From Chiloscyllium plagiosum (Eukaryota): DNA of 45,899 nt. The stretch lies in contig NC_057749.1 in assembly GCF_004010195.1 (NCBI RefSeq), positions 11,259,523-11,305,421 on the forward strand. Direction: 5' to 3'. A program made the translations under genes and the position numbers. This document shows positions 4,481 to 42,670 of the stretch, one piece after another. Each line of letters begins with the position of its first letter. The first letter of the stretch is position 1. The notes beneath the pieces are model-generated. The model did no database searches and was not told where the DNA came from. It saw only the letters and a program-made list of their open reading frames with translations.

Positions 4481-7400
4481 TTGCTATTGTATAAATTCAG
4501 GGAGCTAGGGTGCAAGCTTAGAGCTAGAACAAACAGAGTTGTTACCTCTGGTTTGTTACCCGTGCCACTTGCTAGCAAGGTGAGGAATAGGGAGAGAGAG
4601 CAGTTGAACACGTGGCTACAGGGATGGTGCAGGAGGGAAGGATTCGGTTACCCGGATAATTGGGGCTCATTCTGGGGTAGGGGGACCACTACAAACAGGA
4701 TGGTTTACACCTGAACCAGAGGGGTGCCAATATCATCCGGGGGAAATATGCTAATGCTCTTCGGCAGGGGGATGGGAACCATTGTACAAGAGGTTGGGAG
4801 GAGTGAGGTCATAAATAAGGTTTCAAGGTTGCAAGAGTGTACCGGCAGGCAGGAAGGTGGTTCGAAGTGTGTCTACTTCAACATCAGGAGCATCTGGAAT
4901 AAGGTGGGTGAACCTGCATCATGGGTTGGTAACTGGGACTTCAATGTTGTGGCCATTTTGGAGACATGGATAGAGCAGGGACAGGAATGGTTGTTGCAGG
5001 TTCCAGGATTTAGATGTTTCAGTAAAAACAAGGAAGGTGGTAAAAGAGGGGGAGGTGTGGCATTTATAGTCAAGGACAGTATTATGGTGGCAGAAAGGAC
5101 ATTTTATGAGGACTCATCTACTGAGGTAGTATGGCTGAGGTTATAAACAGGAAAGGTCACCCTGTTGGGAGTTTTCTATAGGCCTCCGAAAGGTTCCACA
5201 GGTGTGGAGGAAAGGGTTGCAAAGGTGATTCTGGTTAGGAATGAAATTAACAGGGTAGTTATGAGGGGGATTTAACTTTCCAAATATTGACTGGAAACGC
5301 TATAGTTTTGAGTATTTTAGATGGGTTAGTTTTTGTCCAATGTGTGCAGAAGGGTTTCCTGACACAGTATGTAGACAGCCCAACAAGGGGCAAGGCCACA
5401 TTGAATTTGATACTGGGCAATGAAATAGGCCAGGTGTTAGATTTGGAGGTAGGTGAGCACTTTGGTGATAGTGACCACAATTTGGTTATATTTACTTTAG
5501 CGATGGAAAGGAATAGGTATATACAGAGGAACCTCGATTATGGGCGGGCAGTATTTCGTTTGAATAATTGATTATTTGGTTAATCGATTCAATGCCTTTT
5601 CTCTGGAGCTCAGAGCTTTCTGTTAAGTCTGCTCTCCTGTTCAGGAGATTAGGCAGCAGCACACCACAAGCATGCCCCTGCCACCGCAACCACACACACC
5701 CCCGCCACCAGCAGACCCCCCCACCCAACCCCATGACCCACCCCCACCCCATTCGCGCCCCTCTCTCCCATCTGACCCGGCCACCCTGCCTTCCAACCCC
5801 CCCATGTGCCCCTGCCCCGTCAGCCCACTATCTGCCTACACTCCTCCCTCTGGGGCAGCCAGAATGGACACATTAAGACTGCTGCTGCTTTTGGGGAGGG
5901 TGAGTCTCAAAATAGAACACACACATACATCTTTTTATTGCAACTTTTTGACAAGTTCCACCTCTGTCCTGTGTAGAACTCCAGGGTAAGTGTGGGGAGA
6001 GACAGGTAGCGAGAGCGCGAGAGCGAAAGACAGAGAGAGAGAGAGAGAGAGACTGTTTCTCAGAAGCATTTCAGTAAGCCGGGTTCATTTTTAATCATTG
6101 GAAACAAAAGACGCGATCAGTGTTGGAAACACGTCTTTGATGTAATATTTCTATCCGGACCTTGAGATCTTCTTCAGATAACCTGAAATTCGGATAATTG
6201 ATATTTGGATAATCGAGGTTCCTCTGTACCGCAGGGTAAGAGCTATAGCTAGGGAAAAGGCAATTATGATGCAATTAGGAAAGATTTAGGATGCATAGGA
6301 TGAGGAAGAAAACTGCAGGGGATGGGTGCAATTGAAATGTGGAGCTTATTCAAGAAATAGCTACTGCGAATCCTTGATAAGTATGTGCCTGTCAGGCAGG
6401 GAGGAAATGGTCAAGCGAGGGAGCCATGGTTTTACTAAAGAAGCTTAATCTCTTGTCAAGAGGAAGAAGAAGGCTTATGTAAAGATGAAACATGAAGGCT
6501 CAGTTAGGGCACTTGAGAGTTAAAAGTTAGTCAGGAAGGACCTAAAGAGAGAGCTAAGAAGAGCCAGGCGGAGGCATGAGAAATCTTTGGTCGGTAGGAT
6601 CAAGGAAAACCCTAAAGCTTTCTACAGATATATCAGGAATAAAAAGAATGACTAGAGTAAGATTAGGGCAAGTCAAGAACATTAGTGGAAGGTTGTGAAT
6701 GGAGCCCAGGGAGATAGGAATATCTTTTATCAGCATTCACACTGGAAAAAGACACTGTCAATGAGGATACTGAGATACAAGTTTAGACAAGACGGGATTA
6801 AGGTTCATAAGGAGGAGGTGTTAGCAATTCTGGAAAGTGTGAAAATAATTAAGTCCCCTGGACCGGATGGGATCTATTCTAGGACTCTCTGGGAATCTAG
6901 GGAGGATACTGCAGAGCCTTTGGCTTTGATCTTTACATCGTCATTGTTTACAGGAATAGTGCCAAAAGACTGGAGGATAACAAATGTCCCCTTGTTCAAG
7001 AAGGGGAGGGGAGACGACCCTGGTAATTATAGACCAGTGAACCATACCTCAGTTGTTGGTAAAGTGTTGGAAAGGATAATTGATAGGATTTACAATCATC
7101 TGGAAGGAATAATTTGATTAGGGATAGTCAACATGGTTTTGTGAAGGGTAGGTCGTGTGTAACAAACATTGAGTTCTTTGAGAAGGTGACCAAACAGGTG
7201 GATGAGGGTAAAGTGATTGATGTGGTGTATATGGATTTCAGTAAGACATTTGATATGTTCTCCATGGTAGGCTATTGCACAAAATACGAAGGTATGGGAT
7301 TGAGGGTGATTTAGCAGTTTGAATGATAAATTGGCTAGCTGAAAAAAAACAGAGGGTTTTGGTTGATGTTCATGCTGGAGTTCAGTTACTAGTGGTGTAC

Positions 7401-7830
7401 TGCAAGGAGCTATTTTGGGGCCACTGCTATTTGTAATTTTTATAAATGACCTGGATGAGGGAGTAGAAGGATGGGTTAGTAAATTTGCAGATGACACTAA
7501 AGTCAGTGGAATTGTGGACAGTGCTGAAGGATGTTGTGGGTTACAGAGGGACATAGATAAACAGCAGAGCTGGGCTGACAGGTGGCAAATACAGTTTTAT
7601 GCAGAAATGTGTGTGATCATTCACTTTGGAAGGAATATAGAGTACTGGGCTAATGGTAAGATTCTTGGTGATGTGGATGAGCACAGAGATCTCGGTGTCC
7701 AAATACATAGATCCCTGAAAATTGCCACCCAGGTCGATAGGATTGTTAAGAAGGCGTGTGTTCGGTTTTATTGGTAGAGGGATTGAGTTTCGGAGCCACG
7801 AGGTCATATTGCAGCTGTACAAAACTCTGG
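4481..7830 (+). mobile_element. CR1 LINE (ORF1 end, endonuclease, RT), decayed and interrupted by a MITE
   Basis: VYFNIRSIWNK...ETW...GGGVA; KSPGPDGI...NYRPV; SQHGFVKGRSC; LFVIFINDLD...KFADDTK. Confidence 0.9.
5524..6226. mobile_element. Non-autonomous Tc1/mariner (Tigger/pogo-like) DNA transposon (MITE)
   Basis: Perfect 17-bp TIRs CAGAGGAACCTCGATTA (5524-5540) and TAATCGAGGTTCCTCTG (6210-6226); TA duplication at 5522-5523 and 6227-6228; host CR1 rejoins across it; internal (GA)n. Confidence 0.9.
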
Positions 7831-10332: not shown

Positions 10333-10705
10333 AGGAGATAGTGAGGACTGCAAATGCTGGAAAGTTAGATTTGATAAAAAGAGGTGCTCAAAAAAGCACA
10401 GCAAGTCAGGCAGCATCCAAGGAGCAGGAGAGTCAACTTTTCAGGCAGGACCCTTCATCAGGACTGGGGAGGGGGAAAGAGAACTGAGAGATAAATGGTG
10501 GGGGTGGGGGTGGGGGTGGGGGTGGGGTAGGCTAAGTGGGATGGTGATAGATGGATGCAGGTGGAAGGTGATTGTAATAGGTTAGTGGGAAGGGTGGAAC
10601 AGAGAGGTGGGAAAGAAGATGGAGAGGTAGGTCAGGTCAGGAGGGCAGTGCCAAGACATTCTGGGCCTCCTCCACTGCCTAAACTGGAGAAAGAGCACCT
10701 CGTCT
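10333..10705 (-). mobile_element. Penelope-like element terminal-repeat fragment with degenerate hammerhead core and (GGGGGT)n tract
   Basis: Reverse-complement similarity to 8800-9075; CTGATGAAGGGTCCTGCCTGAAA on the minus strand at about 10438-10461. Confidence 0.7.
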
Positions 10706-11129: not shown

Positions 11130-11278
11130 TTAAAATTCCTCTTCGGCCCTAATTTTACGCATTTGCTGCAGACACTTCATTTTCTCTATAGTTGCAGCCA
11201 AAGAGTGTTCACCATGTACCTTGCTGTCTCTTGTTTGGACAGTCACCGAACGATTTACTTTTTCCTTTTCCCCGACCA
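11130..11278 (-). CDS. TARS: ThrRS last coding exon: [48 protein letters not shown]
   Basis: ctgtag| acceptor, phase matches (G+TG = Val), TAA stop at 11132-11130; vertebrate ThrRS C-terminus AEEEF. Confidence 0.95.
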
Positions 11279-14200
11279 CTACAGGCAGAGAGATTTTACA
11301 AAAAATTACTCAATTTCCAGTCTAGGTCACTGATGATGCAACAAAATTTCTGCAGCAAACATTTAAACAAATCAAGACAGAGTGTAGGTTCCAGTGTTCA
11401 AGGGTGATTGCATTGCCATTTCTTGCAGTAAGTAAAAGCTTTAACATAATTACTCTAGTTGATTTCATCTTCACACACACACTTGTGTAGGTCACAACTT
11501 CAAAAACCTCTACTGAATTCTACCCAATTTTATCTCCATTGTACAGGTATCCCTGATTTAACACTGCCCCATTCCATGAAAAGACTTTTGAACGTTTTTT
11601 TTATAAGCAGCCTATTTCACTGTTAGATTGGTATTTCTGGTTTTACATAGTGTATTCCTCATATCAGCAGCCCTGATCATAGCTCGCTGGTAATCTAGTA
11701 TGACGTGATCATTGGATTCAGACAAGTGGGTGAATGGAAAAGGTGGATTTCAGCTTGTGTCATTCCTGCTGGCGCCACATAGGAAGTACAACTATCAATT
11801 CAATGATTATCCGAGAAAACAATTGCTCAGATATCATACAAAGGAATCAACAGAAATATCCCAACAACCTCATATGTACACTGGTCATTTTTAATATGAA
11901 GTGCAATTAAACAACCAGTTATATGACAGAGGGAACATCATGCACTTAATTATGGAAATGAAGTTATACCAACATGGATATAATTTATATTAGCGTAGAT
12001 TGACTAGCATTGATTCAGTGCGAACATATGAGTGCTGTGGTATTGTTTACAAATTATGGGATCGTAGTTGGAAACACTTACATGGTATATCCAATACCAT
12101 TTTCAAACAAGTTTACTTATGCAGTATTTTTCTTACATTCAGTGGTTTACTTTACTTTGCAAGATGAACTATTATTTAAGTAATTGCTTTTTATCCTTAT
12201 TGTACCTAATATGGTTGGCTAACTTGGTGCCACTGTTTAAGAAAGGTAGTAAGGAAATGCCAGACAACTAGAGACCGGTGAGCCTGACATCGGGAGTAGA
12301 CAAGTTTTGGAGGACATTGTGAAGGACGGGATTTACATGTATTTGGAAAGGCAAGGACTGATTGGGGATAGTCAACTTGGCTTTGTGCATGGCAAATCAT
12401 AACTCACTAATTTGAGTTTTTTGAAGAGGTAATAAAGAGGACTGATGAGGGCAGAACTGTGGATGTGAGCTATATGGCCTTCAGTAAGGTATTTGATAAG
12501 GTTCCTCATGGTAAACTGCTTAGCAAGGTTAGTTCTCATGGAGTATAGAGCAGAACAACCATTTAGATATAGTACTGGCTTGAAGGCAGAAGACAGAGGG
12601 TGGTGGTGGAGGGTTACTTTTCAGACTGGAGGCCAATGACCAGTGATATGCCACAAGGATTGGTGCTGGGTCCATTGCTTTTCGTCATTTATTTGGATGT
12701 GAATACAGGAGGTATAGTTAGTAAGTTTGCAGATGACACCAAAATTGGAGGTGTAGTGGACAGCGAAAAAGGTTACTTCAGTACAATGGGATCTTGATCA
12801 GATGGTCCAACGGGCTGAGGAGGGTCAAATGGAGTTTAATTTAGATAAATGTGAGATGCTGCATTTTGGAAAGGCAAATCAGAGAATGATTCAAACACTT
12901 AATGGTAAGGTTCTGAGGAATGTTGCTGAACAAAGAGATCTTGGAGTGCAGGTTCATAGTTCCTTGAAAGTGGAGTCGCAGGTCGATAGGATAAAGGCGG
13001 CAGCATTTGGTATGCTCTCCTTTAATGGTCAGAGCATTGAGTGTCGGAATTAGGAGATCATGTCATGGTTGTACAGGACATTGGTTAGACTACTTTTGGA
13101 ATGTTGTGTGCAATTCTGGTCTCCCTCTGATTGGAAGGATATCATGAAACTTGAAAGGGTTCAGAAAAGGTTTACAAGGATGTTGCAAGGGTTGGAGGAC
13201 ATGAGCTATAGGGAGAGCCTGAATAGACTGGGGCTGTTTTCCCTGGAGCGTTGGAGGCTGAGGGGTGACCTTATAGAGGAACCTTGATTATCCAAATGAG
13301 ATGGGCAGGCAGTATTTTGTTTGGAGAATTGATTATTTGGTTAATTGATTCAATGCCTCTCCTCAGGAGTTTTCTGAAGTTTCCTGCTCGTTTCTGAGCA
13401 GACGCACACTTGTGTGTGTAAGGGACCTGCAGCATTGCAGAAACCTCCCACACCTCACCTACACCCCCCCCCCTCCCCCCCGAATCAGTTCAATGTGATT
13501 GACACAGCGAGCACTTGGTAAGTCTGTTCCCCGTTCAGACTAGGCAGTAGCACACTGTGCACGAGCCCCCATCCAACAACCACCCCCCACCCCCGACACG
13601 AACAGCAAAATCGCTGCTGCCTTTGGGAGGGGCGAGTCTCAAAATAGCATGCACACACACAACATTTTACTGCAGCTTTTTGATAAGTTCCATCTTTGTG
13701 TAGAACTCCAGGGAAAGTGTGGGGAAAGAGAGAGGGGGCGATAGGTCATTTGGAGACGCTGCCTGGGCTCCCATCCATGTCCAGGACAGTTCTCGGCAGC
13801 ATTTCAATAAGCCGAATTCACTTTTAATCATTGTAAACAGAAGACATGATCAGTGTTGGTAACACCTCTTTGATGTAATGTTTCTATTGGAATTTTGAGA
13901 TCTTATTTGGATAATCCGAAATTCAGATAACTGATATTTGGATAATTGAAGTTCCTCTGTGAAGGTTTATAAAATCATAAGGGGCATCAATAGGATAAAT
14001 AGACAATGTCTTTTCCCTGGGGTGGAGCGAGTCCAGAACTAGAGGGCATAGGTTTAGGGGGTGAGAGGGGAAAGATTTAAAAGGGACCGAAGGGGCAACT
14101 TTTTCATGCAGAGGGTGGTGCGTGTACAGAATCAGCTGCCAGAGAAAGTGGTTGAAGCTGGTACAATTACAACATTAAAAAGGCATATGGACGGGCATAT

Positions 14201-17200
14201 GAATAGGAAGGGCTTAAAGGGATATGGGCCAAATGCGGGCAAATGGGACTAGATTGGATTAGGATATCTGGTCAGCATGGACGAGTTGAACCGAAGGGTC
14301 TGTTTCTGTGCTGTACATCTCTGTGACTCTATATAAAAAAAAATTTCACAGTATCTTAAAGATATATGCGATAATATATAAATCATTCATACATCAAGTC
14401 ATCTCATTTCGGAATGCACTGTGCTGCACCTCTCTAGTAAAGTAACTCAACTTGTACATTAGCTTTTTTGGACAAGATAATATCCAAAGGAATACAACAT
14501 TAGCATTAACAGATTCCGATGAGAACCCATGATTCTCTGAAGACCATTCCAGTTAAAGTAACAATTCTGAAGAAACAAAACACTAAATAAGGGGGTACCT
14601 TTTGTTACTTTTGATTCAGTTGTGTTGTTGCAGATGGGGCAATGCTATCCTCTAGTAGCAGAAGCTTTAGAGCTGAGACACCTCCCTCCTTCCATCCCAA
14701 AATTTGCATATTGGGTACACCCTCAGCTGTTAGCCCCAACACTTAATTTTGGGAGATACACCTGTCCATCTGTCATAGAGTCATATTCTTCAGTCCATGC
14801 CAACCAAGTTTCCCAAATTAAAATTAGTCCCACTTGCCTGGTTTTAGCCAAAAATCCTCTAGACCTTTCCTATTCATGTACAGGTCCAAACATCTTTTAA
14901 ATGATATAACTGTACCTGCACTGTCATTCACCTGACAGTTCATTCCACATACGAACTATCCTCTGTGTGAAAATGTCAACCCCTCAGGTCACTTTTGAAT
15001 CTTTCTCCACTCACCTTAAAAATATGCCACCTAGTTTCGAGCTCCCCCACCCCCAGGAAAGGACCATTGCTATTCGCCTTATCTATGCCCCTGATGATTT
15101 AAAAATTCTCAATAAAATGTGACAGTGCTATCACTTTAATAGTTTATTTTGTCCGTTTTTTTTGAAGAGAGCTTATAAGGCAAAGATGCCAAGCTGGCTA
15201 GTTAAGACCACTTGGGTATACAGCTTGGAGTTCTTTTCTCTTTGAAAACACCCTAATGGGTGTGGCCAGCTCTCTCAGATTAGAATTTCTGGGTTTTGGT
15301 GTTTCAGTAACATCAGAACCTATTGGGGTCTCAACAGAGTTGAAAGTTTCAAGGAATGTCTCCTGACTGCTGTTCTCTCTGAATCTGCTCTTGATCACTT
15401 TTCCTCCTGGATGGGAAGACTGCATGCACGAATTTATGTCTGAAACTTGCCTGTTTGCCAAGGGACATGTTTATAGGATGTTACTATATTCTAACAGTTA
15501 ATGAATAATTATTTCTGTATCTATTATTCTGTTAAGTTTCCAAAAGAGTTAAGTTATTTTAAGTTCCTTTTTGTTTAGTTGCATTTTAACCAGAGAAGTC
15601 TGACCAATTGCACTGCATCTAGAACACACACATTACATTACAGTCATACAGCTGTACAGCATGGAAACAGACCCCTAAGTCCAACTTGTTCAGGCTGATC
15701 AGGTATCCTAAATTAATCTTGACCCATTTGCTAGCATTTGGCTCATACCCTCCCCCCCAAACCTTTCCTAACCATTTACCCATCCAGAAAACTTTTAACT
15801 GTTGTAATTGTACCAGCCTCCACCACTTCCTCTGGCAGCTCTTTCTATGCATGCACCACCCTCTTGTGAAGAAGTTGCCCTGAGGTCCCTTTTAAATATT
15901 TCCCCCTTACCTTAAATCAATGGCCTCTAGTCTGGCACTCCCCATCCCCAGAGAAAAGATCTTGGTTATTCACTCTATCCACGATCCTCATTATTTTATC
16001 AACCTTTATAAGGTTATCCAAGAAATGAGATAGCTGCACCTCTGGCAATGATCTTTGCATCCTCACTCTCCACGGGAGTAGTAGCAGATGATTGGAAGGT
16101 GGCGAACTTTGTTCCTGTGTTCAAGAAAGGGAATGGGGAAATCACTGGTAAGTACAGACCAGTCAGTCTTATGTCTGTGGTTAGCAAGGTACTGGAAAGG
16201 ATTCTGAAAGATAGGATTTATGACCATTTGCAAAAGCATAGTTGGATTAAAGATAGTCAACATGGCTTTGAGAGGGGCAGGTCATGTTTCACAAGCCTAA
16301 TTGAGTTTCTTTGAGGATGTGACGAGACAAGTTGACAAAGGGTCAAGCAGGGGATGTGGTGTATATAGATTTCAGTATAAGGCATTAGATATGGATCCCA
16401 TGGTAGGCTCATTCAGAAAAGTAAGAGGTATGGGATACAGAGAAATCTGGCTCTCTGGACACAGAATTGGCTAGATAAAAAAAAGACAGTGAGTGGTAGT
16501 GGATGGAAAGTATTTCACCTGGAGGTTGGTGATCAGTGGGGTCCCACAAGGATCTGTTCTTGGGTCTCTGCTCTTTGTAGATTTTATAAATGACTTTGAT
16601 GAAGAAGTGGAAGGGTAGGTTAGTAAGTTTGCCGATGACACAAAGGTCGGTCGTGTTGTCGATTGTGTCAAGGGCTATTGCAGACTACAAGAAGACATCA
16701 GGAGAAAATGAGGACTGCAGATCAGAGTCAAAGTGTGTGTTGCTGGAAAAGCACAGCAGGTCAGGCAGCATCCGAGGAGCAAGAGAATCGGTGTTTTGAA
16801 CATAAGCTCTTCATCAGGAAATCCTGATGACCAGCTGTGCTTTTCCAGCACCACACTCTTCGACTACAAGACATTGACAGGATGCAGAGCTGGGCTGAGA
16901 AGTGGCAGACAGAGTTCAACCTGGCTAAATGCAAGTGATTCATTTTGGAAGGTCGAATTTGTGGAGGAATAGCGGTCCATGAACATAGATCCCTCAAAGT
17001 TGCCCCCCCCCCAAGTTGATAAGGTTGTTAAGAAGAATATGATGCTTTCATTAACAGGGCAATTTTAGTTTAAGAGGTTTTGCTGCAGCTCCATAAAACC
17101 CTGGTTAGACCACATTTGGAGTACTGTGTCCAGTTCTGGTTGCCTTATTATAGGAAGAATGTAGATGTTTTAGAGAAGCTGCAGAGGAGATTTATCAGGA

Positions 17201-20200
17201 TGCTGCATGGATTGGACACAAAAAAACTGATGCTGTAATACAAAATAGGCAGGCAGGAGGCTGTAAGAACACAGCAAGCCATGTAACAAGAAGGGTTAAA
17301 CCCAAAATGTTGACCTCCACCTCCTGATGCTTCCTGTCGAGCCTGGATTGGAGAATAAGCCTTATGAGAGGTAGAGTTAGCCAGGGCTTTTCACACTGGA
17401 GAGAGGGAGGAAGAGAGGTGACTTGATCGAGGTTACAAGGAAATGAGAGGCATAGATAGAGTCAATAGCTAGAGGCTTTTCTCAGGGCTAAAATGACTGT
17501 CATAATTTTAAGGTGATTGGAGGAAGGTAAGAAGGGAGATGTCAGAGGTCGGTTCTTTACACAGAGTGGTGGGTGCCAGCTGTGGTAGTAGAGACAGAGA
17601 CATATGGACATTTAAGCGACTGCTGGATAAGCACATGGATCGCAGTAAATTGAGGGGTGCGTAGGTTAGGCTGATCTTACATAAAGACAAATGCTTGGCA
17701 CACCATCGTGGGCCGAAAGGCCTGTACTGTTTATGTTCTATAAGGTCACCCCTCGTCTCCTACGCTCCAGGGAAAATAGTCCCATCCTATTCAGCATCTT
17801 CCCATAGCTCAAACCCTCCAACCCTGGCAACATGCTCGTATATCTTTTCTGAACCTTTTCAGGTTTCTCAACATCCTTCCTCTAGCAGGGAGACCAGAAT
17901 TGAATGCAATATTCCAAAAGTGGCCTAACCAAGGTCCTGTACAGCCTCAACATTACCTCCCAACTCCAAATTAAGAAAACGTTTGGGTAAAGGCTACCTT
18001 CTTAAAATATTTTGAGGGGGTCTCGTCCGGTCCATAACAAAAGTCACCCCTCAAGCTCCAGTGAAAAAAAGGCCCAGCCTTTCTTTCTAACTCAAACCCT
18101 CCAGGCCCGGCAACATCCTGGAAAACATTTTTCTGAACCCTCTCCAAAACTGTATTCAAAAACTGAATTTGATAACATCCTTGCAAAACAGGATGACCAG
18201 AACTGTACACAGTACTCCAAAACTGATCCACCAACGTCCTGTACAACCTCAACATGACGTTCCAACTCCTATACTCAATAGTTTGAGCAACGAAGACAAA
18301 CGTGCAAAATACCTTAACCACCCTGTCTACCTGTGATGCAAATTTCAAAGAACTATGTATTTGAACCTTGATACTACCCAGGGCCTTAACAATAACTGCG
18401 CACGTCCTGCCCTTGTTCACTTTACCAAAATGCAATACCTCACATTTATCCAAATTAAACTTCATCTGCTACTCCTCAGCCCATCGGCCCAATTAATCAA
18501 GATCCTTTTGTAATCTTAGATAACCTTCACTGTCCATTTCACCAATTTTGGTGTCATCCACAAACTTACTAACCATGCCTCCTAAATTCCCATATATATA
18601 AATAACAAATAACAATGGACCCAACAGCAATCCCTGTGGAACACTGCTGGTCACAAACCTTCTGTCCCAAAAACAACCCTCCATCACCACCACCCTCTGA
18701 ACCTTACCATCCAATCAAATCCAATTAACAAGCTTTCTCTGAATCCCATGTGATCTAACTCCAAGCACAGTTAAAAAATGAAACTTACTGTAAAGGAGGC
18801 TCTCAACCTCAATCATTCCATTCCACATTCCCAACATTACAATGCATCATACCAACTTTGTGGTACAATGGTTGACACACTGGGACACCATATGATTTAC
18901 ACATTTTGAATAGGGAACCTGAAGAGAATATCTCCACATCCCACAGCGAGTATGAACCAAATAGATACATTCACTGATTGTGAAAGGGACCTTTTAGGAT
19001 TTGGACCCAACATGTTCAAGACCATGCAGAGGGAGGGGGGGGGGGGGGCGGAGAGAGATGTAGAAACTGGGAAAATTGGATCTTCAGAGTAAAGTGGGAG
19101 CATCAGATTTTATTTACCCAGAATGAAATTATACTGAGCAAGCTGAGAATTTTGAATCTTCTTATTCAACAATACATCAGGATCCAGATCCACATCGGCC
19201 ATGAAACCTCTTTCAACAAACTCTTGACAAACCTAAAAGAAGAATGGTTAAGATTGCTTTACATAAAGATATGCGAAGACAAAGATATATCAAGTGCTAC
19301 AATCAGCTCTGCTCACCCTCTGACCATACTCCTCACAGCCTGGTCCATCAGGTATTATCATAATCTGACGTGGAGACAGCCAGAATGGCCTACATTAAAA
19401 CAAGAAAAAACAGTCAAAAGATTTCAACAATTAACAACTTTATCTTTCCAACTTTTGGAATTTGCCCTTTACAGGATATTATCTCAGTTTCCTATTGTTA
19501 AAATGAAATGCACAAGGCTATGCTATGGTGATTCTTGGATCATTTGTTTACTTATGGTCTTTCCCTTTCTTAGCCAGGGAACATTTAATCTTAGGACTGT
19601 CATTCTCTCCCTGACAGAGCCTAAAGCCTAAAGCTGCTTTCACCACCCCAGATTTAAATTGCTTTAATCAAACGTAACATGTAAGGGTATTCATGTAACC
19701 TATTCTGAAGTTTTCCTGACAGCAAGTCTGGTTGTTTGGATTACTGGTCTTTAAAGGAATTTTTGAAGAAGGTAAAAAGTGTTGACACATAAAAACAATG
19801 GCAGTAGCCTGTATGCTAACAATGGATAGACAGAGTGTCTCTGAAGTTGCAAAAATGTCATCTTGTAAACAGTTAGGCTTTAATCAGTCAACTTACTTCA
19901 GATAAAAGAGTTGTTGTTTCAAGGTTGGTTAATCTGTATTTCTAACTAGATACAATGTTTTTGTGGTTCACATTGTCATGCAGATTTTTTTTAAAAAACT
20001 TTCTTCAAGTCCAAGATATCCCTGAAACATTCAAAATTTTATCCAGGACATGGGAGAATGAAAGCAGATACAGATAGCAAGCCACTGGTTCACTGCACTA
20101 AAAGGTAGGTGGGAGCTTGTGCTTACGTCAAGAAGCTGGAAATGTGTTGCTGGAAAAGCGCAGCAGGTCAGGCAGCATCCAGGGAACAGGAGAATCGACG

Positions 20201-23200: not shown

Positions 23201-26200
23201 CAAACTCTGAAACCAAAGAGGATGAGAACAGCACAATTTCCAAGTGAGACATTCACTCTGTAGCATCAGATATTTGAAACGTTACCATTTCCCAGCATAG
23301 TCTTCAGCAAGAATTGCAACCATGCGTTCCAGTGATCCCAGCACAGCACGATGAATGATAACTGGGCGGCTTTCATTTGTTCCATCTTTACTATAGAAAA
23401 CAGGAAAGTGAACCAGCAACAGCATGACAAAATTAATGGCTTTTTCCACAATTTCAGGCAACCCCTCCTCAATCTCTTTATTGTCAAGCTTCTCTGAAGT
23501 CACTGATCTTACTGTGATACTGGTCAATAGGAGTCGCTATTAACTAAAAGCTCAATCAAGTCACTATTATTCATACAAACTCGAGCTACTTACATATCAC
23601 TCCAAGCTGGCAACAACAGAGTAGCAGCATTCAGGCCTGGGTCATGAGCATGGATCTCATCCATTTCTTCTTTTCTTCCCCTCTTTGTTTCACCTTTGCT
23701 GTCTTATTCTATTCTGTTCTGGAAGCACTGGTCCTCTAAGAGTTTTAGGAGTATCAGTGGCAGTCCCCTTCACAGTGGACAGCAGCAGTTCCTTCCCAGA
23801 GTGTCAGAAGCCTGGGGGGGCGGAGGTGGTGGCTCCTCACCAGAGGAGTTGGCAGTCAGGGGAATAATTCCTTCTCGGAGCACAGCAGCCAGGGGGATGC
23901 GGTTCTTTCCCAAAGCGTCATCAGCCGGGCGGGGGTGCAGTTCCTCACTGGAGCGTCAGCAGGAGCATAGTTCAGTACCCAACTGCTTCGGTGGCAGCTG
24001 CGTTGCTGAGATTTGCCCAGCGCAGACATTTGGCAACAGTACAGTGGAGGTAAGGTAGCGTTAAAGAATGGAGACACCATTCCAGCAGCTGTGATGCAGA
24101 TCCATACCATGGCTGGTCCTGGCTACCTGACAGCAGAGGTCGTGGTGTTCTCGCTGCACTGGCACGCAGGTTCTTGTGGCACCTGAGCCCTCCTAGACTG
24201 AAGGATGGACTTTGTGGCTTTGCTTTGCTGGTGGAGGACTCATGGTAGAGGCAGGGAAGTGATCTAGACATTGTTTCCTTTTGGCTGTTTCTTTAATTTC
24301 TGCTTCTGTTTTCAATTCTGTCTTCAATATTCTACAATGATGCCAGAGAATGGCGACTATGTATACTTTTCATTGTACTCCTGTATTCCTGTACTCAAGT
24401 ACATATGACAATAAAATCTAAATCTCTAGGTACAGCATCTCATCAAATCTGATCCAACTCTAACATGTGACTTCTTATAAAAGTTGTTAAATTGATTTGT
24501 AGCAAGAGCTAACTGATCTCCTCCATGCCCAATAAAAGCCAAGGAGAGTTCCAACAGCCTAACTATTGTCCAACTTACAATCAGCATACCTAGCAAAGAG
24601 AAGAATTTGAATTGTCCAGTCTGTAAAGCTTGATCTTATATTATGTAATTACCTACAGAGTAACTGTTGCACCAGTTAACCCTACAGTGTGCAGACATTA
24701 CAGATGGGAAATCAAAGACAAAATTCTGAGAAGTCACAATATCAAAGCTGTACTCACCTAACATACGCTAGGTTAAACTGAATGGGCAGCTGGAAATCCA
24801 GCTGAATTGTGGCACATTGATGGTATCGGCCTAGAGCATCCTTTATCTCAATGTCGATCTGCGGTGAATCAGAGAATTAGAAAATACATGGAAGGCTTGA
24901 GGGGATAAAAACATACTGCGTTAATACGCTATACTAACCTTTGGTCCATAAAATGCTCCATCTCCAGCACTCAGTCGCCACTGCTCATCAAATGCATTCA
25001 AACAGCACTCCAACTGCTAAACCACAAGAAATAAAAACATGAAACTCAGTATTAATTTACAGCTTATTTTACTGATACATTTGTTTAAAACTGGTCTTTC
25101 ACAGAGTTCATCTCACTGGAGATCAGAAATTCATGTAGGACAATGTACATTGTCCTGATGTCAGCATCAATTTTGCTGGGACCATGAGTTAAAAACAGAA
25201 TAAGTTGTCTCTACAATGTCACTCCCAAGGTGGATAGCAAGAGTGCAGAAAGGAGAGTTCATATTTATTGTGCTGCAAGAAACAGCTTCCTTTTCAATTG
25301 GGGACATGATAGCTTAGAAATGTGGAATTGGTTTTATCAAGACAGTTTTGGTTTGAAAGGCTCTCTATAAAAACTAAACACAGTCTCCTTGTTGCAAGAC
25401 TGAGAAAAATAGTGATTTCATCCACATGCAGTTGATGTCAAGCCAACTCACCATCTGCACCAATTATTCTTTCCATGATTAGCCAATAGTCCAGCAACCA
25501 CTTGCCTTTTCTGCCTGATTCCACAAATGCAGATCGCCCAGAAACTTTTCTGGTCGTGTGGAAAGAATGTACTGGAAACTGAAGCCAAACACTCCATACA
25601 CTGAGCGGACAAAGTCCAGACATTCACTTATCTCCTCATCAATCTATAAAAGGAGAAGGAAGATAAGAATAGACACCAAATCCAAACCAATAAAGTAAAA
25701 CAGAAACAGGGAGTATTGGATAAGTCAACTGCTTTTAATGGCCATTGTTTTTATTTTTCTGTATTTCCAACTGTGGACTGAAATGGGAAAAGAACTGCTT
25801 GAAAAACAAAGCAAGCAATCTGACACTCATTGTAAATACATAACCGCTGGCTCTAGCAAAGAAAGATGGTTTGCAGATGAACTGGAGCCAAAGGCGGCAT
25901 ACAATTGTTGATTCAGCCAGTAACAAACAGTTGTTTAATCTGCGGATCAGTGATCAGTTATCAATGAAAAAGGTCATCTTCCTAACATACCAACTGTGAG
26001 ATTGGGGGAGATCTCATGTAGCTGAACTGTTTAGGGCTGTGAACAAGATAGCGAAAAGTCTTCCGATCTCCATTGGCTCAGGAGTTCTCTCTATTCTCTA
26101 TAGTCAAAATGTCTTTAAGCTTGAAGAAAACCAGTTACATTATCTTCAGTTTCTGTAAGCTTTTACTTTTAACTAATACATCAAAACTTCAAAAAGTCAG

Positions 26201-32200: not shown

Positions 32201-35200
32201 GTTTCCTTCACCTTAAACACCTAATCAGGTCTGCCTCATTACGTCACCAAATCCAGAATTGTCTCTCTCTCTCACAAGCTGCTCCCAAAAACCATCTCAT
32301 AGACATTCCACAAATTCCTTTTCTGGAGATCTGCTACTAATCTGATTTTCCCAGTCTACCTCCGTATCAAAGTCCCCATGGTGATTATAATAGTGCCTTT
32401 CTTACACACCTTTTCAACTCCTGATTTATTTCATCTCCTGGGGAGGTGATGGCCCAGTGGTATTATAGTGCTAGTGTTGATTCAGAGACCCAGAGAATGT
32501 TCAGGGGATCTGGGCTTGAATCCCACCATTAGATTCAATAGAAAACCTGGATTTAAGGGTCAAATGATGGCCAAGAAACAATTGTCAGTTGTCAACAAAA
32601 CCGATATGGTTCGCTAAGATTCTTTAGGGAAGGAAACTGCTGTCCTTATCTGGTCTGGCTTACATGTGACTCCAGACCTCTAGTAATGTGGTTATTCTTA
32701 ACTGTCCTGTGTTATTATAGATGGGCAATAAATGCTGGCCTACTCAGTAATACCCACTTAAAATGAATGATAAAAGAAAATTCTTCCCTACATACTGACT
32801 ACTGCTAAGAGGCCTGTACACAATTCCGATCAGAGGTTTTTCCCTTTATGGCTCTATCTATGTTATATATATGTATATTATATATATGTATATTATATAG
32901 AGTCGGAAGGCATAAATCTCACTTCTTGCTATTGATTTAATTCCATTTCTTACTGGAAAGGTAACCCTGCCCATCTGCCCGTCCTTTCAGTAGGACGTGT
33001 CCTTGGATACCCAGCTGTGATCCTTGCAGCCATGTCTGTGATACCCACAACATTGTACCTGCCAATTTTTAAACTGCGATACAAGTTCATTTGTCTTGTT
33101 TCATATACTCCATGCATTCAACACCCTCAGTCCAGAGGCTCACTGCCCTCTCCTTCTCATACTTGTCCCTTTACCTGCTTTGGTTGAAGTTAGATTCCTG
33201 ACACTTTCACTACCCTCTGTCCTATTACTTATTCAAATTCAACTAAAGTTCAACTGTTACTCAAGTTATAAGGGGCCATATCTTATTCAGATTAAAAAGG
33301 GGAATGAGATTAGAATGTAACATTTCACTCACCTGCTCTACCATACAGAAGATGTGAGCATCATCCTGTTCGAACCGGCGTACTCTGCTTAATCCTGTTA
33401 AGGTGCCTGAAAACTCATTCCGATGAAGAACCCCAAAGTCAGCTAATCGCAAAGGGAGCTCACGCCAAGATCGTGGACGATGGTCAAACATCAAACTGAA
33501 ACAAACAGTATTTTAAGCATTCTGGCACTACCGGTCTGATACGTCACTTCTCATGGGAACCAAATCTCCCATTATGTCTGAAACGGATCTATCCAAATTC
33601 ACAGAGAAGATTCAGTATTGGTGTTATTGGGCTCAGTCCCCAGTATCCCACTGGTATTATGGAGCTGTTGGTATAAATTGGATATATGATGCAGAAACAG
33701 GCCTAGCTCAATCACCAATCTTAGTGAATTTGCTTTAATCAAGCCTCCTTCATCTTTCCTCATCCAAATCTACAATATGCAACTATTTTCTTCGCCCCCA
33801 TGTTTGTCCTGCTTCCCCTAAAATACATAAATTATACACTCAACCACTCCCTGTGATACCTGTAAATTCTTACCACTCTTTCTGAATTCTATATTAGATT
33901 TCTTAATGACAGTCTTAGATTGACGACCTTTATTATGTGTTTCCACATAAGAGAAAACTGTCTTTTTCAAACCTCTCATAACGTTAATTGCTTCCATTTG
34001 GTTTTTGTTCAGCCTTTTTTTTTAAAAACAGAAACCCATCTGATCTCATTTTCCTGATGTCGACCCACACGTTTATTATCAACCTTATGAATGGTCTCTG
34101 TTCCTTTTCTCGTGCCTTCTTTTGCATAATGTGCCAACCACTCCGCACTCAGGACTTTTACATGATCTAGCCAGGAATTGATGCAGGTTGGGGAGACAAT
34201 GGCACAGTGGTATTATCACTGGACTATTAATCCAGAAACTCAGCTAATGTTCTCAGGATCTGGGTTCAAATCCCACCACAGCAGATGGTGGAATTGAAAT
34301 TAAGAATCTATGATGACCATGAAATCATAGTCAGTTGCTGGAAAAACTCATCTGGTTCTTTAATGAAATCTGCAATCTGGCCTACATGCGAATCCAGAGT
34401 CACAGCAGTGTGGTTGATTCTCAAATGTCCTCCTTAATGATATAGCAAGTCACACAGCTGTATTAATCACAAAATCTCAAAGAAATGAAACTGGACATAC
34501 CACCTGACATCAACATAGGCAGCAGAAAAGACAACAGCACAAACAGCGCTGCTGACTCTGCAAAATCCTCCTTACTAACATCGGGGGGGGGGGGGCGCGG
34601 GCGAGCGCCAAAATTGAGAGTTGTCTCACAGACTAGTCAAGCAACATTAATCAAATCTGAAGAAAGCATCTTCCAAACCCATGACCACTTCCATATAGTA
34701 GTACAAGGGCAATAGATACATGGGAATACCACCAACTGCAAGTTTCCCTCCAAGCCACTCACCATCCTGACTTGGAAAATATTGCCATTTTTCAGTGTCT
34801 CTGGATAAAAATCCTGGAATTCCCTCCCTAATGGCAATGTGGGTCAACCCACAGTGTGTGGACTGAAGCAGTTCAAGCAGTAGCTCACCACCAGCTTCTC
34901 ATGGGCAACTAGGGACAGGTAATAAATGCTAGCCGGTCAGCAATGCCCACATCCCACAAAAGAGTATGCAATTTCCAAATAATAAGGGTTTGTTAAATGG
35001 GCGTAACCTATAGTACAACCTTTAATATTTGTACGGAGGTCTCTTTTACCCTCTCTACTCCACCTACATTTACATCTTATCAGTGACCTCCACATTCTTT
35101 CTACTAAAATGCACTTGCTCACATTTAGTGTTGAACCTTTTTTGGCAATTATTAGCCTGTTCTGTTATAGAGGGTGTGTTCTTGTATTGCAGTATCTGAC

Positions 35201-41200: not shown

Positions 41201-42670
41201 ATGTGAGAATCTATGTCTGAATTTTCCTTTTTGCCAAGGAGTGTGTTGAAAGGATGTTACTATATTGGAGCATTTAGTGAGGAATAGTTACTGTATCTAT
41301 TATTCTGTCAAGTTTCCAATCTGTGAAGTTATTCTGAATTGCTCTTTCTCTGGTTGTATTTTAATGAGTGTTTACATTAATGGTATTTTGCTTCCCGTCG
41401 AGTAGTTTGGCCAGTTGCACTGCATCGGAGACACTTTATACTTGCCTTTAAAATTAGAAAAAGTTAGGATCTAACCCTAACCTTCTTAAAATATTTTTGA
41501 GGGGTCAGATATGTCATCCTTTAGACTCCAATATTGCAGCAGGACTGAGCATGGGCGTTGTCCACTTACACCTGCTTTCTTTTTTATTTAGATTAGATTA
41601 CATTACATTACAGTGTGGAAACAGGCCCTTCAGCCCAACAAGTCCACACCGACCTGCCGAAGCGTAACCCACCCATACCCCTACATTACTTTTTGCTTTC
41701 ACTCTTTATCTTTCTTGTTTTCTTTAAAAAGTAGAGAGCGATGGGTGGAGGAGGCGGCATCCAGTGGCAGCAGTAGTGACAGCAATGTCAGGATGAGTTC
41801 CAACTCCACACCTGCCAAGGGTATCCTGGCAGCAAGCAACAGGTCCCAAGCTAACTCCCCCAGCACCGACTCACAGGCCGAGGCGAAGTCCCACGTCAGT
41901 AGCTAGACTAGCTTCCAGAACTGAAAGTGCTGGTGGTGGACTCCAACGACTGATGACTGGCAGCAGCATCTGGAGGAGCATCAGATGGGACACAGGAGAT
42001 AGAGAACCCCCACAACCCCAGGCCGATGGTTCCAACTCAGAAGTTGCAACTGCGGCATAGGCGGAGGCCCACAACAGAGACCCCAGAGATCATTACATAG
42101 ACTGCTCCAAAGACTGTCAAGCAGCGATGAGATGAGCAGTGGAGGAGGAACAAGATAAGGAGAGAAAGTAAAATTTTGCCACATGTTCAACATTTCAAGA
42201 TGGCGCTAAAATGTGGCGACACTGTGTATAACACATGAAGTCACTTTTCACAATATTTTAAATTCATGTGACGATAAATCTAACCTAAATCTTGATGTAT
42301 CGCTCCTCGTCCTTTGCAGTCAGCACCCAACTTCAACAGATAAACATAGATCCACAATGTCTGTTTGACTCCCAAGGGGATTAGAATACCAAACACTGCC
42401 TCACCATGACTCATGTTCATTATAACTGACCTCTGAACATCTCTTCCAAAAAAACATACAATTTTGAAATACTCTAATAGAAGCCCAAGTGTTTAACACA
42501 TACCAATGACCTGGGCAATTCATGGGCTTCAGCGCAAATATCTCTTTCTCCACCTGAAAGCTAAACATTTTCTCATGGTAGTGCTGCCAGTGGCCAGATA
42601 TTTCCCACAGGCAACTGCTGTAGATATTTGGAGATATCACTTCAGTGAATCCATGTCTATGATACTCCTC
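11130..42670 (-). CDS. TARS: Threonine--tRNA ligase, eukaryotic cytoplasmic type, 3' part (9 coding exons; paralogue uncertain, TARS3/TARS2-like); 5' exons outside window
   Basis: Exons 42504-42670, 33333-33495, 25506-25643, 24939-25016, 24758-24858, 23286-23390, 19317-19389, 19118-19232 and 11130-11278 splice in frame (1089 nt). They give ThrRS signatures [85 protein letters not shown] and AEEEF*. Confidence 0.96.
12205..14332 (+). mobile_element. 5'-truncated CR1 (HER1-like) LINE with intact 3' tail, interrupted by a MITE
   Basis: [40 protein letters not shown]; ends ...gtacatctctgtgactctat. Confidence 0.9.
13274..13959. mobile_element. Second copy of the Tigger-like MITE
   Basis: Termini TAGAGGAACCTTGATTATCCAAAT and ATTTGGATAATTGAAGTTCCTCTG; internal similarity to 5524-6226; inserted at the TA of CR1 GACCTTA|TAGAGG. 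Confidence 0.85.
16015..17740 (+). mobile_element. 5'-truncated CR1 LINE nested in another CR1
   Basis: [14 protein letters not shown]...YRPVSL...SQHGF; 3' tail cctgtactgtttatgttcta; flanked by TATAAGGT at 16007-16014 and 17739-17746. Confidence 0.85.
16693..16861. mobile_element. Penelope-derived foldback mini-element, degenerate
   Basis: Inverted arms (gctggaaaagcacagc / gctgtgcttttccagc); direct repeat GACTACAAGA at 16683-16692 and 16862-16871. Confidence 0.7.
19118..19232 (-). CDS. TARS: ThrRS exon (115 nt): [38 protein letters not shown](V)
   Basis: ttttag| acceptor and |gtaaat donor; anticodon-binding domain. Confidence 0.95.
19317..19389 (-). CDS. TARS: ThrRS exon (73 nt): [24 protein letters not shown]
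   Basis: atgtag| acceptor and |gtgagc donor; start of the anticodon-binding domain. Confidence 0.95.
20134..20328. mobile_element. Penelope-derived foldback mini-element with perfect 71-bp inverted repeat and hammerhead core
   Basis: Arms 20134-20204 and 20225-20295 are exact reverse complements with a 20-nt loop; TSD CTTACGTCAAGAAG at 20122-20135 and 20329-20342. Confidence 0.85.
20731..21086 (-). mobile_element. tRNA-derived SINE (SacSINE1/DeuSINE-like), inserted in an old CR1 remnant
   Basis: Minus strand shows A-box-like TGGCCTAGCAG, B-box GGTTCAAATCC and tail ...gaatgaataaaaaa; homologous to 32440-32780. Confidence 0.75.
21480..21940 (-). mobile_element. Penelope-like element GIY-YIG fragment
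   Basis: Minus strand reads [18 protein letters not shown]...YIGETK. Confidence 0.7.
23286..23390 (-). CDS. TARS: ThrRS exon (105 nt): [34 protein letters not shown](W)
   Basis: ctatag| acceptor and |gtaacg donor; Zn-ligand His (IHRA) and motif 3 (GSLER). Confidence 0.96.
23665..24426 (+). repeat. Unclassified interspersed repeat (probable non-autonomous retroposon)
   Basis: GC-richer body ending ATGGCGAC...acttttcattgtac...TGACAATAAAATCTAAATCT; a similar tail occurs at 42200-42292. Confidence 0.45.
24758..24858 (-). CDS. TARS: ThrRS exon (101 nt): [33 protein letters not shown](S)
   Basis: ccgcag| acceptor and |gtgagt donor; [10 protein letters not shown] signature. Confidence 0.96.
24939..25016 (-). 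CDS. TARS: ThrRS exon (78 nt): [26 protein letters not shown]
   Basis: tttag|CAG acceptor and |gttagt donor; GDGAFYGPK signature. Confidence 0.95.
25506..25643 (-). CDS. TARS: ThrRS exon (138 nt): [46 protein letters not shown]
   Basis: Polypyrimidine-ttatag| acceptor; non-canonical AAG|GCAAGT donor; [10 protein letters not shown] motif. Confidence 0.93.
26527..26862 (+). mobile_element. L2/CR1-like LINE 3' end fragment
   Basis: [13 protein letters not shown] peptide; tail caataaatgctggcc...aatgaataaagaaaaaa. Confidence 0.7.
27795..31391 (-). mobile_element. Long CR1 LINE (ORF1 end, endonuclease, RT, 3' tail) with deletions, interrupted by an HE1 SINE
   Basis: ORFs 30971-31198 (SGNH), 30217-30795 (AITETWL...GGGV...MGDFN), 29628-30056 and 28227-28760 (GVPQG...YINDL). 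Confidence 0.9.
29034..29347 (+). mobile_element. HE1-type tRNA-derived V-SINE, full length and young
   Basis: A box TGGCACAGTGG, B box GGTTCAATTCC, V-domain GTGTGGAGTTTGCACATTCTCCCCGTGTCTGCGTGGGTTTCCTCCGGGTGCTCCGGTTTCCTCCCAC, CR1-like tail and (TAATC)n; CpGs retained. Confidence 0.92.
32440..32780 (+). mobile_element. tRNA-derived SINE (SacSINE1/DeuSINE-like)
   Basis: GGGGAGGTGATGGCCCAGTGG head, degenerate B box, tail gggcaataaatgctggcc...aatgaat. Confidence 0.75.
33333..33495 (-). CDS. TARS: ThrRS exon (163 nt): [54 protein letters not shown]
   Basis: tttcag| acceptor and |gtgagt donor; motif 2 and Zn-ligand His (DDAH); phase matches the previous exon (TG+T = Cys). Confidence 0.97.
34190..34962 (+). 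mobile_element. Internally deleted LINE carrying the SacSINE1-like tRNA head (SINE head, LINE 5' region, LINE 3' end)
   Basis: 34190-34430 matches the SINE head and core; endonuclease-start-like LLTNI...LSHRLVKQ follows; from ~34660 it matches the LINE 3' end at 26527-26862. Confidence 0.6.
35655..36293 (+). mobile_element. Young 5'-truncated CR1 (HER1-like) 3' end
   Basis: Uninterrupted ORF2 C-terminus [17 protein letters not shown]...[10 protein letters not shown] and tail ctctatgactctat. Confidence 0.92.
36486..36620 (+). mobile_element. Short Penelope-derived repeat with hammerhead-like core (36538-36572)
   Basis: CAC-CTGACGA-AGGAAC-AGT-GCTCT-GAAAGCTT-GTG; related to 40785-40820 and 44185-44256. 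Confidence 0.6.
36750..36940. mobile_element. Penelope-derived foldback mini-element
   Basis: Imperfect inverted arms (gtttagatcagagtggtgctg / cagcaccactctgatctaaac); TSD CTATGGTATTA at 36739-36749 and 36941-36951. Confidence 0.8.
37054..37358 (-). mobile_element. HE1-type V-SINE, near-identical inverted copy of 29034-29347
   Basis: Reverse complement matches the first copy apart from a few substitutions and one ~16-bp deletion. Confidence 0.92.
38685..39925 (-). mobile_element. Internally deleted CR1 nested in the 5' LTR
   Basis: 3' tail at 38685; ORF1 peptide ISGLLPVP...[20 protein letters not shown]. Confidence 0.8.
40450..40820 (+). mobile_element. Penelope-type terminal-repeat fragment with mutated hammerhead core
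   Basis: Ends ATGATGAAGGAACAGTGCTCTGAAAGCTAGT, the same motif family as 36538 and 44222. Confidence 0.55.
41588..41687 (-). mobile_element. 5'-truncated HE1 SINE (3' end only)
   Basis: Matches the tail and (TAATC)n of the two full copies. Confidence 0.85.
41690..42292 (+). repeat. Unclassified interspersed repeat related at its 3' end to 23665-24426
   Basis: AAGATGGCG...GTGGCGAC...cacttttca...GTGACGATAAATCTAACCTAAATCT. Confidence 0.4.
42504..42670 (-). CDS. TARS: ThrRS exon (167 nt): [55 protein letters not shown](C)
   Basis: ttacag| acceptor and |gtatgt donor; class II motif 1 region and Zn-ligand Cys (MNC). Confidence 0.96.

Follow-up and report, generated by a model that had tools for sequence, protein, structure and literature searches.

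Whether a threonyl-tRNA synthetase (ThrRS) that retains its catalytic ligands after exchanging residues that face the tRNA-Thr anticodon is still a synthetase is the question raised by a gene on the minus strand of a 45,899-nucleotide stretch of the genome of the shark Chiloscyllium plagiosum (NCBI RefSeq assembly GCF_004010195.1, contig NC_057749.1, positions 11,259,523 to 11,305,421 of the forward strand; G000:C40:11259523-11305421 in our notation), a stretch that we call the window throughout. The window holds the last nine exons of this ThrRS-like gene, amounting to 362 of its 474 codons, and the first-pass annotation, made from the letters of the window, had read it as a ThrRS paralogue. 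Our analysis leads elsewhere: judged by the ranking of a protein search, by a shared N-terminal extension and by a separate TARS1 locus in the same genome, the gene is orthologous to TARS3/TARSL2, the duplicated ThrRS-like cytoplasmic gene of vertebrates, and not a new paralogue; on its complete gene model, the larger change is the loss, upstream of the window, of seven exons for the TGS and editing domains, with the N-extension joined directly to the catalytic core; and the synthetase functions of TARS3 have probably ceased to be selected in this lineage. TARS3/TARSL2 is, to our knowledge, the only duplicated aminoacyl-tRNA synthetase gene of vertebrates.

The complete model comprises 11 exons and 474 codons in one open frame that ends in a TAA stop, with exon boundaries set from tblastn coordinates and from the exon lengths of the TARS1 paralogue, a GC donor being permitted; acceptors are AG throughout, donors are GT except for one GC, and all 10 splice-site pairs are usable. 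The product differs from a protein of Hemiscyllium ocellatum (P0002) at 14 of 474 residues and from one of Chiloscyllium punctatum (P0001) at 4 of 363. The features of the gene, in coordinates of the window or, for the first two, in window coordinates continued upstream of it, are as follows.

70527-70291, minus strand, upstream of the window: N-extension exon, located by tblastn
57295-57197, minus strand, upstream of the window: ELFFFH exon
42504..42670, minus strand: exon 3 of 11, EEYH...MNCPGH, with motif 1 and the Zn ligand Cys164 (TGC 42517-42515); located by tblastn to P0002 and to the Heterodontus protein P0003, its length of 167 equal to that of the TARS1 paralogue exon
33333..33495, minus strand: exon LMFDH...HRNEFSG...RRFEQDDAH...VEQ, with the motif-2 Arg193 and the Zn ligand His215
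25506..25643, minus strand: exon VDEEISECL...WNQAEK, followed by the GC donor; 94% identical to P0002
24939..25016, minus strand: exon QLECC...GDGAFYGPK, located by tblastn
24758..24858, minus strand: exon IDIEIK...HQCATIQ...AYV, located by tblastn
23286..23390, minus strand: exon KDGTNES...IHRA (Zn ligand His341)...GSLER (motif-3 Arg350)...GKW, located by tblastn
19317..19389, minus strand: exon with the start of the anticodon-binding domain, ending in GQR; D377 is GAT 19349-19347
19118..19232, minus strand: exon with Q414, CAA 19154-19152
11133..11278, minus strand: last coding exon, VGEKEK...VTVQTRD...EEEF, with E431, T438 (ACT 11243-11241) and Q440 (CAA 11237-11235)
11132-11130, minus strand: stop codon TAA
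10817..11129, minus strand: 3' untranslated region with AATAAA at 10844-10839; contigs of the sequencing runs X18, X16 and X13 begin at 10817, 10820 and 10846, and an X12 contig extends 258 letters further down

The motifs and the codons for Q414, Q440 and D377 that the first-pass annotation had quoted are all where it had placed them on the minus strand, namely NKKIQNSQ at 19166-19143, VTVQTRD at 11246-11226, IIPDGP at 19358-19341, MNC at 42523-42515, HRNE at 33425-33414, DDAH at 33365-33354, FYGPK at 24953-24939, HQCATIQ at 24822-24802, IHRA at 23356-23345, GSLER at 23338-23324 and GEKE at 11273-11262, and the open frame of 362 residues is equally as described, running through nine exons to the TAA. 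The span of 11130-19389 that it had assigned to the gene takes in only the last three exons, with the catalytic motifs lying outside it at 23.3-42.7 kb. In the orthologue P0002 the class II catalytic core is recognized as Pfam tRNA-synt_2b (PF00587, E=1.5e-42), and in the gene itself the Zn ligands C164, H215 and H341, the motif-2 R193 and the motif-3 R350 are all present; by alignment they map to residues that we take to be the Zn ligands Cys334, His385 and His511, the motif-2 Arg363 and the motif-3 Arg520 of the E. coli enzyme. The intron behind the GC donor opens with GCAAGT at 25505-25500, the paralogous TARS1 intron opening with GT, and the junction NQAEK/QLECC across it is present in both P0001 and P0002.

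The assignment to TARS3 emerges from several comparisons. A protein search with P0002 scored 8000 candidates, and among the best 120 of them the first seven are full-length cartilaginous-fish proteins of 755-793 residues (Heterodontus, Cetorhinus, Mustelus, Scyliorhinus, Pristiophorus, Hypanus and Narcine), followed by tetrapod and fish proteins annotated as 'threonine--tRNA ligase 2, cytoplasmic' or SYTC2; when the last exon served as the query, only P0001 and P0002 matched (2 significant among 7 candidates). Common to all is an N-terminal extension with two leucine-rich helices (...LREENEKLKYRRLHL...) that aligns throughout, and of the 24 columns of this extension with 90% conservation or more among bony-vertebrate TARS3 the shark gene keeps 23, its catalytic core and anticodon domain being 72-74% identical to vertebrate TARS3. 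A separate, complete TARS1-type locus lies on contig C1 of the same genome; it shares with our gene the core exon lengths of 99, 167, 163, 138, 78, 101, 105, 73, 115 and 146, but its exons for TGS and editing are still there, and its anticodon domain has VVPVGP, KKIRNAQ and VNVRTRD. In a tree rooted on this TARS1 and built without the partial sequences P0001, P0007 and P0112, the cartilaginous-fish sequences form one clade with a support of 1.0; within it hemiscylliids and rays come out together, probably an effect of long-branch attraction, and the topology was not used. Overall acceleration on the tree proved only modest and was set aside. No TARS3-type protein of whale shark, zebra shark or chimaera is among the 120 matches, for which loss, absence from the collection or a lower rank are all possible reasons. 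Elsewhere in the genome, small contigs carry more distant ThrRS pieces, probably TARS2, and G000:C11:30298168-30299253 (minus strand) holds an uninterrupted frame of 476 residues with 24% identity to the ThrRS core and anticodon domain, which may be another class II synthetase in a single coding exon.

The loss of the N-terminal domains is visible in the annotated proteins of the two related sharks as well as in the genome. In P0001 (363 residues) and P0002 (481 residues) the extension RAELGKTPQERWTEAQ runs directly into EQELFFFH (EQELFFFHELSPGS), with no TGS or editing domain; Pfam accordingly finds only PF00587 (tRNA-synt_2b) and PF03129 (HGTP_anticodon) in P0002, whereas the Heterodontus protein P0003 has four domains, TGS and tRNA_SAD included. 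With 40 kb upstream of the window added for the search, the flanking exons, that of the extension and that of ELFFFH, were found to lie 13 kb apart; tblastn with three full-length shark proteins gave no TGS or editing match within these 13 kb, and neither did a profile hidden Markov model (HMM) of the two domains, whose best hit there had E=4.3, although the same profile recovers seven of seven exons at the TARS1 locus with E<=2e-10. Three species thus share the same domain-less architecture, and a hidden block of exons is therefore unlikely.

Two further proteins have their N-extension almost directly on the catalytic core, one from the bichir Polypterus senegalus (P0141, 'SYTC2 ligase, partial', 520 residues) and one a ray-like Logan transcript (P0009, 531 residues); both are without TGS and have little or no editing domain. 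Their architecture may parallel the hemiscylliid form, judging from the domain content, with the reservation that the P0141 gene model, being marked partial, may be incomplete. All three domain-less forms, those of the hemiscylliids, P0009 and P0141, are without Arg414 and have a changed 377 loop, P0009 reading K414 with a one-residue deletion in the loop and P0141 reading T414 and E377. The annotated C. punctatum protein P0001, an isoform X2, moreover skips the exons matching window 42670-42504 and 33495-33333, joining ...AFIQ to VDEEI... and so leaving out motifs 1 and 2 along with two of the three Zn ligands.

Turning to the anticodon domain, alignment to E. coli ThrS equates Q414 with R583, Q440 with R609 and the retained E431 with E600, the human equivalents being R663, R689 and E680, and at the two glutamine sites human TARS1 (chains 4p3n, 4ttv and 4hwt) has KKIRNAQ and VNIRTRD, in agreement with the arginines that the first-pass annotation had named there. 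All three residues (R583/E600/R609, human R663/E680/R689) are named as binding residues in the literature (PMC6430810). The finer structural account is that the R609 equivalent, Arg434 of yeast mitochondrial MST1, contacts U36, that the E600 equivalent reads G35, that R583 of the E. coli enzyme is stacked on A38, with coordination of bases 37 and 38, whereas its MST1 counterpart Lys408 touches no tRNA, and that E. coli D549, two residues after the position with which D377 aligns, contacts U33 (PMC4756836). Hence the view that both lost arginines contact the anticodon stands for the one that reads U36 and has to be amended for the other, which lies against the bases beside it. Of the two residues that recognize the tRNA-Thr anticodon, the reader of G35 (E431) is kept and that of U36 is replaced by Q440.

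How unusual these states are can be gauged against other enzymes. Bony-vertebrate TARS3 has Arg at both sites in 110 of 110 sequences, with Val at 377 in 107 and Ile in the other 3; of the 134 that cover the sites in a diverse set of 148 ThrRS representatives, 88 have R at position 414, 8 have it shifted by one, 16 have K and 19 have neither; at position 440, 127 have R, 4 have K, 2 have Q and 1 has N; position 431 is E in 128, and position 438 is N in 41, S in 34, A in 21 and T in 16. Arg is missing at both 414 and 440 in only 3 of the 134, and none has Asp or Glu at 377. In view of these states and of the structural contacts, Q440 and D377 are the informative changes and Q414 alone is not; it is because these two are unusual while the catalytic ligands are intact that a weakened recognition of tRNA-Thr is plausible, the first-pass annotation having proposed, from all three positions, an altered or absent one. 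Across TARS3 the replacements vary with the lineage: hemiscylliids and Mustelus have Q at 414, where two rays have W, P0009 has K and the bichir has T; at 440 hemiscylliids have Q and rays have H; and 377 is D, A, T or E, a pattern that looks like repeated loss and not like convergence on a new specificity.

These codons are not an assembly error. The last exon is covered without a single differing letter by contigs of X12 and X16, which are other samples of the same organism, and of X13, a second organism (from 10780, 10820 and 10846, respectively, to 11278/9), and X16 (record 18) likewise covers 19317-19647, including the D377 exon, with 0 other letters. For the Q414 codon (19152-19154) no listed contig has a difference count, and the support comes from P0001 and P0002, both of which carry the Q/Q/D combination; the substitutions are thus fixed across related sharks, the hemiscylliids C. 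punctatum and H. ocellatum.

A broader observation is that the anticodon domain is not the only part to have changed. Our reference is the core of 110 bony-vertebrate TARS3 sequences, 395 columns that start at ELFFFH and run to the end, in which 233 columns are at least 99% invariant (184 catalytic, 49 in the anticodon domain). The window gene deviates at 18 of the 233 (12 of 184 catalytic and 6 of 49 anticodon-domain columns), P0002 of Hemiscyllium at 18, Heterodontus at 9, Pristiophorus at 9 of 210 covered, Cetorhinus at 18, Mustelus at 22, Scyliorhinus at 21, Hypanus at 18, Narcine at 40, the Logan transcript P0009 at 25 and the bichir P0141 at 18, whereas the reference sequences average 0.28 with none above 3, and the shark's own TARS1, which lies outside the reference set, has only 3; for P0121 (S. 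torazame isoform X2), with an alternative C-terminus, deviations after column 437 were ignored. By this count, cartilaginous-fish TARS3 is eroded across the clade (9-40 of 233) at positions kept by bony TARS3 and by the shark's TARS1. Divergence as such is comparable elsewhere: bony-vertebrate pairs that differ at 69-75 of the 395 columns differ at 0-1 invariant columns, cartilaginous-fish pairs at 17-36. An excess of change in the anticodon domain was considered and not borne out, for it is significant neither for the gene (Fisher p=0.23) nor for any of eight other sequences (p=0.068-1.0). The contrast between an intact core and a clustered loss of anticodon contacts, from which the first-pass annotation had argued, accordingly holds for the named catalytic ligands and is otherwise overstated, given this p value and the 12 other invariant catalytic positions that have changed.

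Some relatives have gone further in the active site. The full-length protein of Narcine bancroftii (P0098) has, in E. coli numbering, R363H, D383G, T482A and R520H, and that of Mustelus asterias (P0005), also full-length, has R520S; the TARS3 proteins of these two fishes are probably catalytically impaired although they possess an editing domain.

Whether the gene is maintained is a separate matter. Its frame is open in three species (474-481 codons), and contig X16 record 23 joins 24939 to 24858, exactly removing the predicted 80-base intron, from which we take it that the intron 24938-24859 is removed in RNA. Contig X13 record 15 has 103 foreign letters in front of the acceptor at 23390, the contigs of four runs stop at the acceptor of the last exon (11276-11279), and contigs of three runs begin 20-25 bases past AATAAA; contig depth, which in X12 and X18 is greater over the last exon than over the intron beside it, was left out of the evidence. 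Thus stops, frameshifts, lost splice sites and absent transcription, the marks of a pseudogene, are replaced here by an open frame, usable junctions and spliced contigs. Of the 10 variable core sites among the three hemiscylliid sequences, 2 fall on invariant columns where 59% would be expected (binomial p=0.015), and between cartilaginous fishes substitution at invariant columns proceeds at 0.24-0.53 of the rate at other columns, so that constraint is relaxed but not gone. A rough bound, on which we do not rely because organism C is not matched to P0001 or P0002, sets the 14 amino-acid differences to P0002 against an intron divergence of about 3.4% in that organism (174 other letters in 5165 letters of contig).

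The surroundings of the gene are rich in retroelement remains. Fragments of open reading frames of the LINE type (long interspersed nuclear element; reverse-transcriptase-like ...FADDTK... and endonuclease-like) are abundant in the introns and downstream of the gene, and the contigs lying over them have a very high summed depth. In the window they are found at the following positions.

1312-2121, minus strand: LINE-type fragment
4715-5146, plus strand: LINE-type fragment
6686-7777, plus strand: LINE-type fragment
12400-13290, plus strand: LINE-type fragment
16012-17240, plus strand: LINE-type fragment
17971-18714, minus strand: LINE-type fragment
28227-30882, minus strand: LINE-type fragment
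35645-36214, plus strand: LINE-type fragment

Just past the 3' untranslated region, at 10440-10640, lies a C-rich low-complexity tract that is (CCCCA)n-like on the minus strand.

Known proteins offer three points of comparison. With vertebrate TARS3/TARSL2 the shark gene shares the leucine-zipper N-extension and the standing of one of two cytoplasmic-type ThrRS genes in its genome, but it is without TGS (N1) and editing (N2), the domains through which mouse and human TARS3 perform the editing that has been measured for them, it reads Q/Q/D where the bony forms read R/R/V, and it carries the 18 deviations at otherwise invariant columns. Yeast mitochondrial MST1 (PDB 3ugq, 4yye) resembles it in consisting of a catalytic core and an anticodon domain without an editing domain (phmmer E=7e-101 over P0002 65-456) and in having a residue other than Arg at the R583 position; MST1, however, keeps Arg434 and reads U36 with it, is the active and sole mitochondrial ThrRS, has no leucine-zipper extension and lost its editing domain independently, the shark gene being far closer to TARS1 and TARS3. 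The engineered deltaN-ThrRS of E. coli (PDB 1evk/1evl, 401 residues) has the same core domain content, P0002 87-477 aligning to chain positions 9-398 with E=2e-92, yet it was made by truncation in the laboratory and retains R583, E600 and R609; in fold, the shark core is like these solved ThrRS cores. This deltaN-ThrRS charges tRNA-Thr and mischarges Ser.

The reading that we find probable is that the synthetase functions of TARS3 are no longer selected in this lineage, the protein charging tRNA-Thr poorly or not at all, and that the kept extension and folded core suggest that its role is bound up with the multi-synthetase complex or with TARS1. In mouse and zebrafish TARS3 is dispensable for charging: when Tarsl2 is knocked out, tRNA-Thr is charged as before, and the authors of that work suggest that the protein, although active in vitro, is not a tRNA synthetase in vivo (PMC10200997; a review makes the same point, PMC11088916). 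Owing to this dispensability, the constraint on editing and on tRNA reading probably lapsed in the shark lineage, in which the TGS and editing exons, the U36-reading Arg and the loop-stacking Arg are gone and an Asp sits in the U33 loop. Probably, then, the gene persists for some role outside translation that depends on the N-extension together with a core that folds, binds threonine and ATP and dimerises, the candidates being attachment to the multi-synthetase complex by way of ArgRS/AIMP1 or a partnership with TARS1. For such a regulatory or heterodimeric role, which the first-pass annotation had listed among its options, there is a basis in the literature: ThrRS-L has an ArgRS-like N-extension with two leucine zippers that bind ArgRS and p43/AIMP1, the extension targets it to the multi-synthetase complex, and human ThrRS-L heterodimerises with ThrRS (PMC6794377).

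Several points weigh against this reading. The catalytic set is intact, for beyond the ligands already named the equivalents of D383, Y462, K465 and Q479/Q484 are also kept in the alignment to E. coli ThrS; 46 of the 134 representatives have a residue other than Arg at the R583 site while keeping the Zn ligands and, in all but one each, the motif-2 and motif-3 Arg; and N438T is common in the wider family, as the T and S counts at that site indicate. The root-to-tip distance of the gene, 0.30, does not make its branch exceptional beside the bony-vertebrate median of 0.26 (range 0.12-0.32). The sequencing runs are contigs of guessed type, which show splicing but not expression level, strand or transcript ends, and the constraint test among the hemiscylliids counts 10 amino-acid sites. 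Furthermore, a run of 36 N (66884-66919 in window-continued coordinates) lies inside the 13-kb intron, on account of which the exon loss rests partly on the protein models of two other species. Finally, residual charging is quite possible, since editing-less ThrRSs (yeast MST1, E. coli deltaN) exist and work.

This last point leads to an alternative that we regard as unlikely but well worth weighing, namely that the gene encodes a working, reduced ThrRS in the manner of MST1 or deltaN, charging tRNA-Thr without post-transfer editing, with Q/Q/D tuning the binding of the loop or co-varying with shark tRNA-Thr. The kept catalytic ligands and G35 reader, the MST1 lysine that makes no tRNA contact, the many representatives without Arg at the R583 site, the open and spliced frame and the residual constraint at ThrRS-invariant columns would all fit; but the R609 equivalent contacts U36 in both solved complexes and is Arg in 127 of 134 representatives and in every bony TARS3, an acidic 377 is found in none, sister lineages have lost motif-2 or motif-3 arginines, TARS3 is unneeded for charging even where intact, and 18 invariant columns deviate against 3 in the shark's TARS1. 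Deletion of the editing domain impairs aminoacylation by the yeast cytoplasmic ThrRS, while editing-less MST1 makes Ser-tRNA-Thr in vitro, G35 and U36 being identity elements (PMC4267643). That the gene is instead functionless and in slow decay, still transcribed, with the slow mutation rate of sharks having yet to produce a stop or a frameshift, seems distinctly improbable to us. It would account for a clade-wide erosion that strikes different essential parts in different lineages, for the repeated loss of N-terminal domains (hemiscylliids, P0009, Polypterus P0141), for the exon-skipping C. punctatum isoform, for the GC donor and for the lack of a whale-shark or zebra-shark protein among the listed matches; it sits poorly with a frame of 474-481 codons open in three species with all splice-site pairs usable, with recent substitutions that avoid invariant columns, with an N-extension conserved at 23 of 24 columns and with an invariant-column rate well short of 1.

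Even less credit is due to the idea that the protein has been turned toward another RNA or tRNA, with Q414, T438, Q440 and D377 reading a different anticodon-like loop. The changes do sit at the U33-contacting loop and at residues contacting U36 and A37/A38, and the anticodon domains of E. coli and human ThrRS bind mRNA loops too (PMC6430810); the replacements, however, differ by lineage in a loss-like manner (414 Q/W/K/T; 440 Q/H; 377 D/A/T/E), the anticodon domain has no significant excess of change, and no candidate RNA partner was found, none having been searched for. Nothing points to the new RNA substrate that the first-pass annotation had also envisaged. Hardly credible at all is an artefact of assembly or annotation, whether through wrong bases in the Gln codons or through domain exons hidden in a gap. 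The 36-N run just mentioned and the 5.5 kb of N adjoining the window would allow it (the N runs upstream, loci L009-L012, being 45900-51459, 66884-66919, 71216-71413, 74083-76451 and 85099-85899 in window-continued coordinates), but at the codons for Q440, T438 and D377 the contigs of independent samples and those of a second organism show 0 differences, the proteins of two other species share both the residues and the domain-less junction, and the exon next after the missing domains has the 5.5-kb run on its downstream side.

One extension of the reading that we favor, in which the synthetase functions are no longer selected, deserves mention as a doubtful but consequential conjecture. Once editing had been lost, an enzyme that activates Ser would be a liability, and it might have been selection rather than drift that removed the anticodon-loop contacts, independently in hemiscylliids, in the ray-like P0009 and in the bichir P0141, thereby giving rise to a tRNA-blind protein that binds threonine and ATP and is tethered to the multi-synthetase complex. 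If this were true, the protein could be an amino-acid sensor or a regulatory partner of TARS1.

TARS3 itself, its N-extension and its dispensability are already known, whereas the domain-less, Arg-less hemiscylliid form and the erosion across the clade appear to be undescribed, no published account of a shark or cartilaginous-fish form of TARS3 having been found in a literature search limited to one collection. Cartilaginous fishes, and apparently the bichir too, thus provide a natural dissection of the TARS3 protein: the domains for TGS and editing can be lost, and so can the arginines that read the anticodon and, in certain lineages, those of motif 2 or motif 3, and what persists is the leucine-zipper extension together with an open, spliced core. 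This pattern points to the N-extension and the folded core as the parts of TARS3 that matter, and it gives ready separation-of-function variants.

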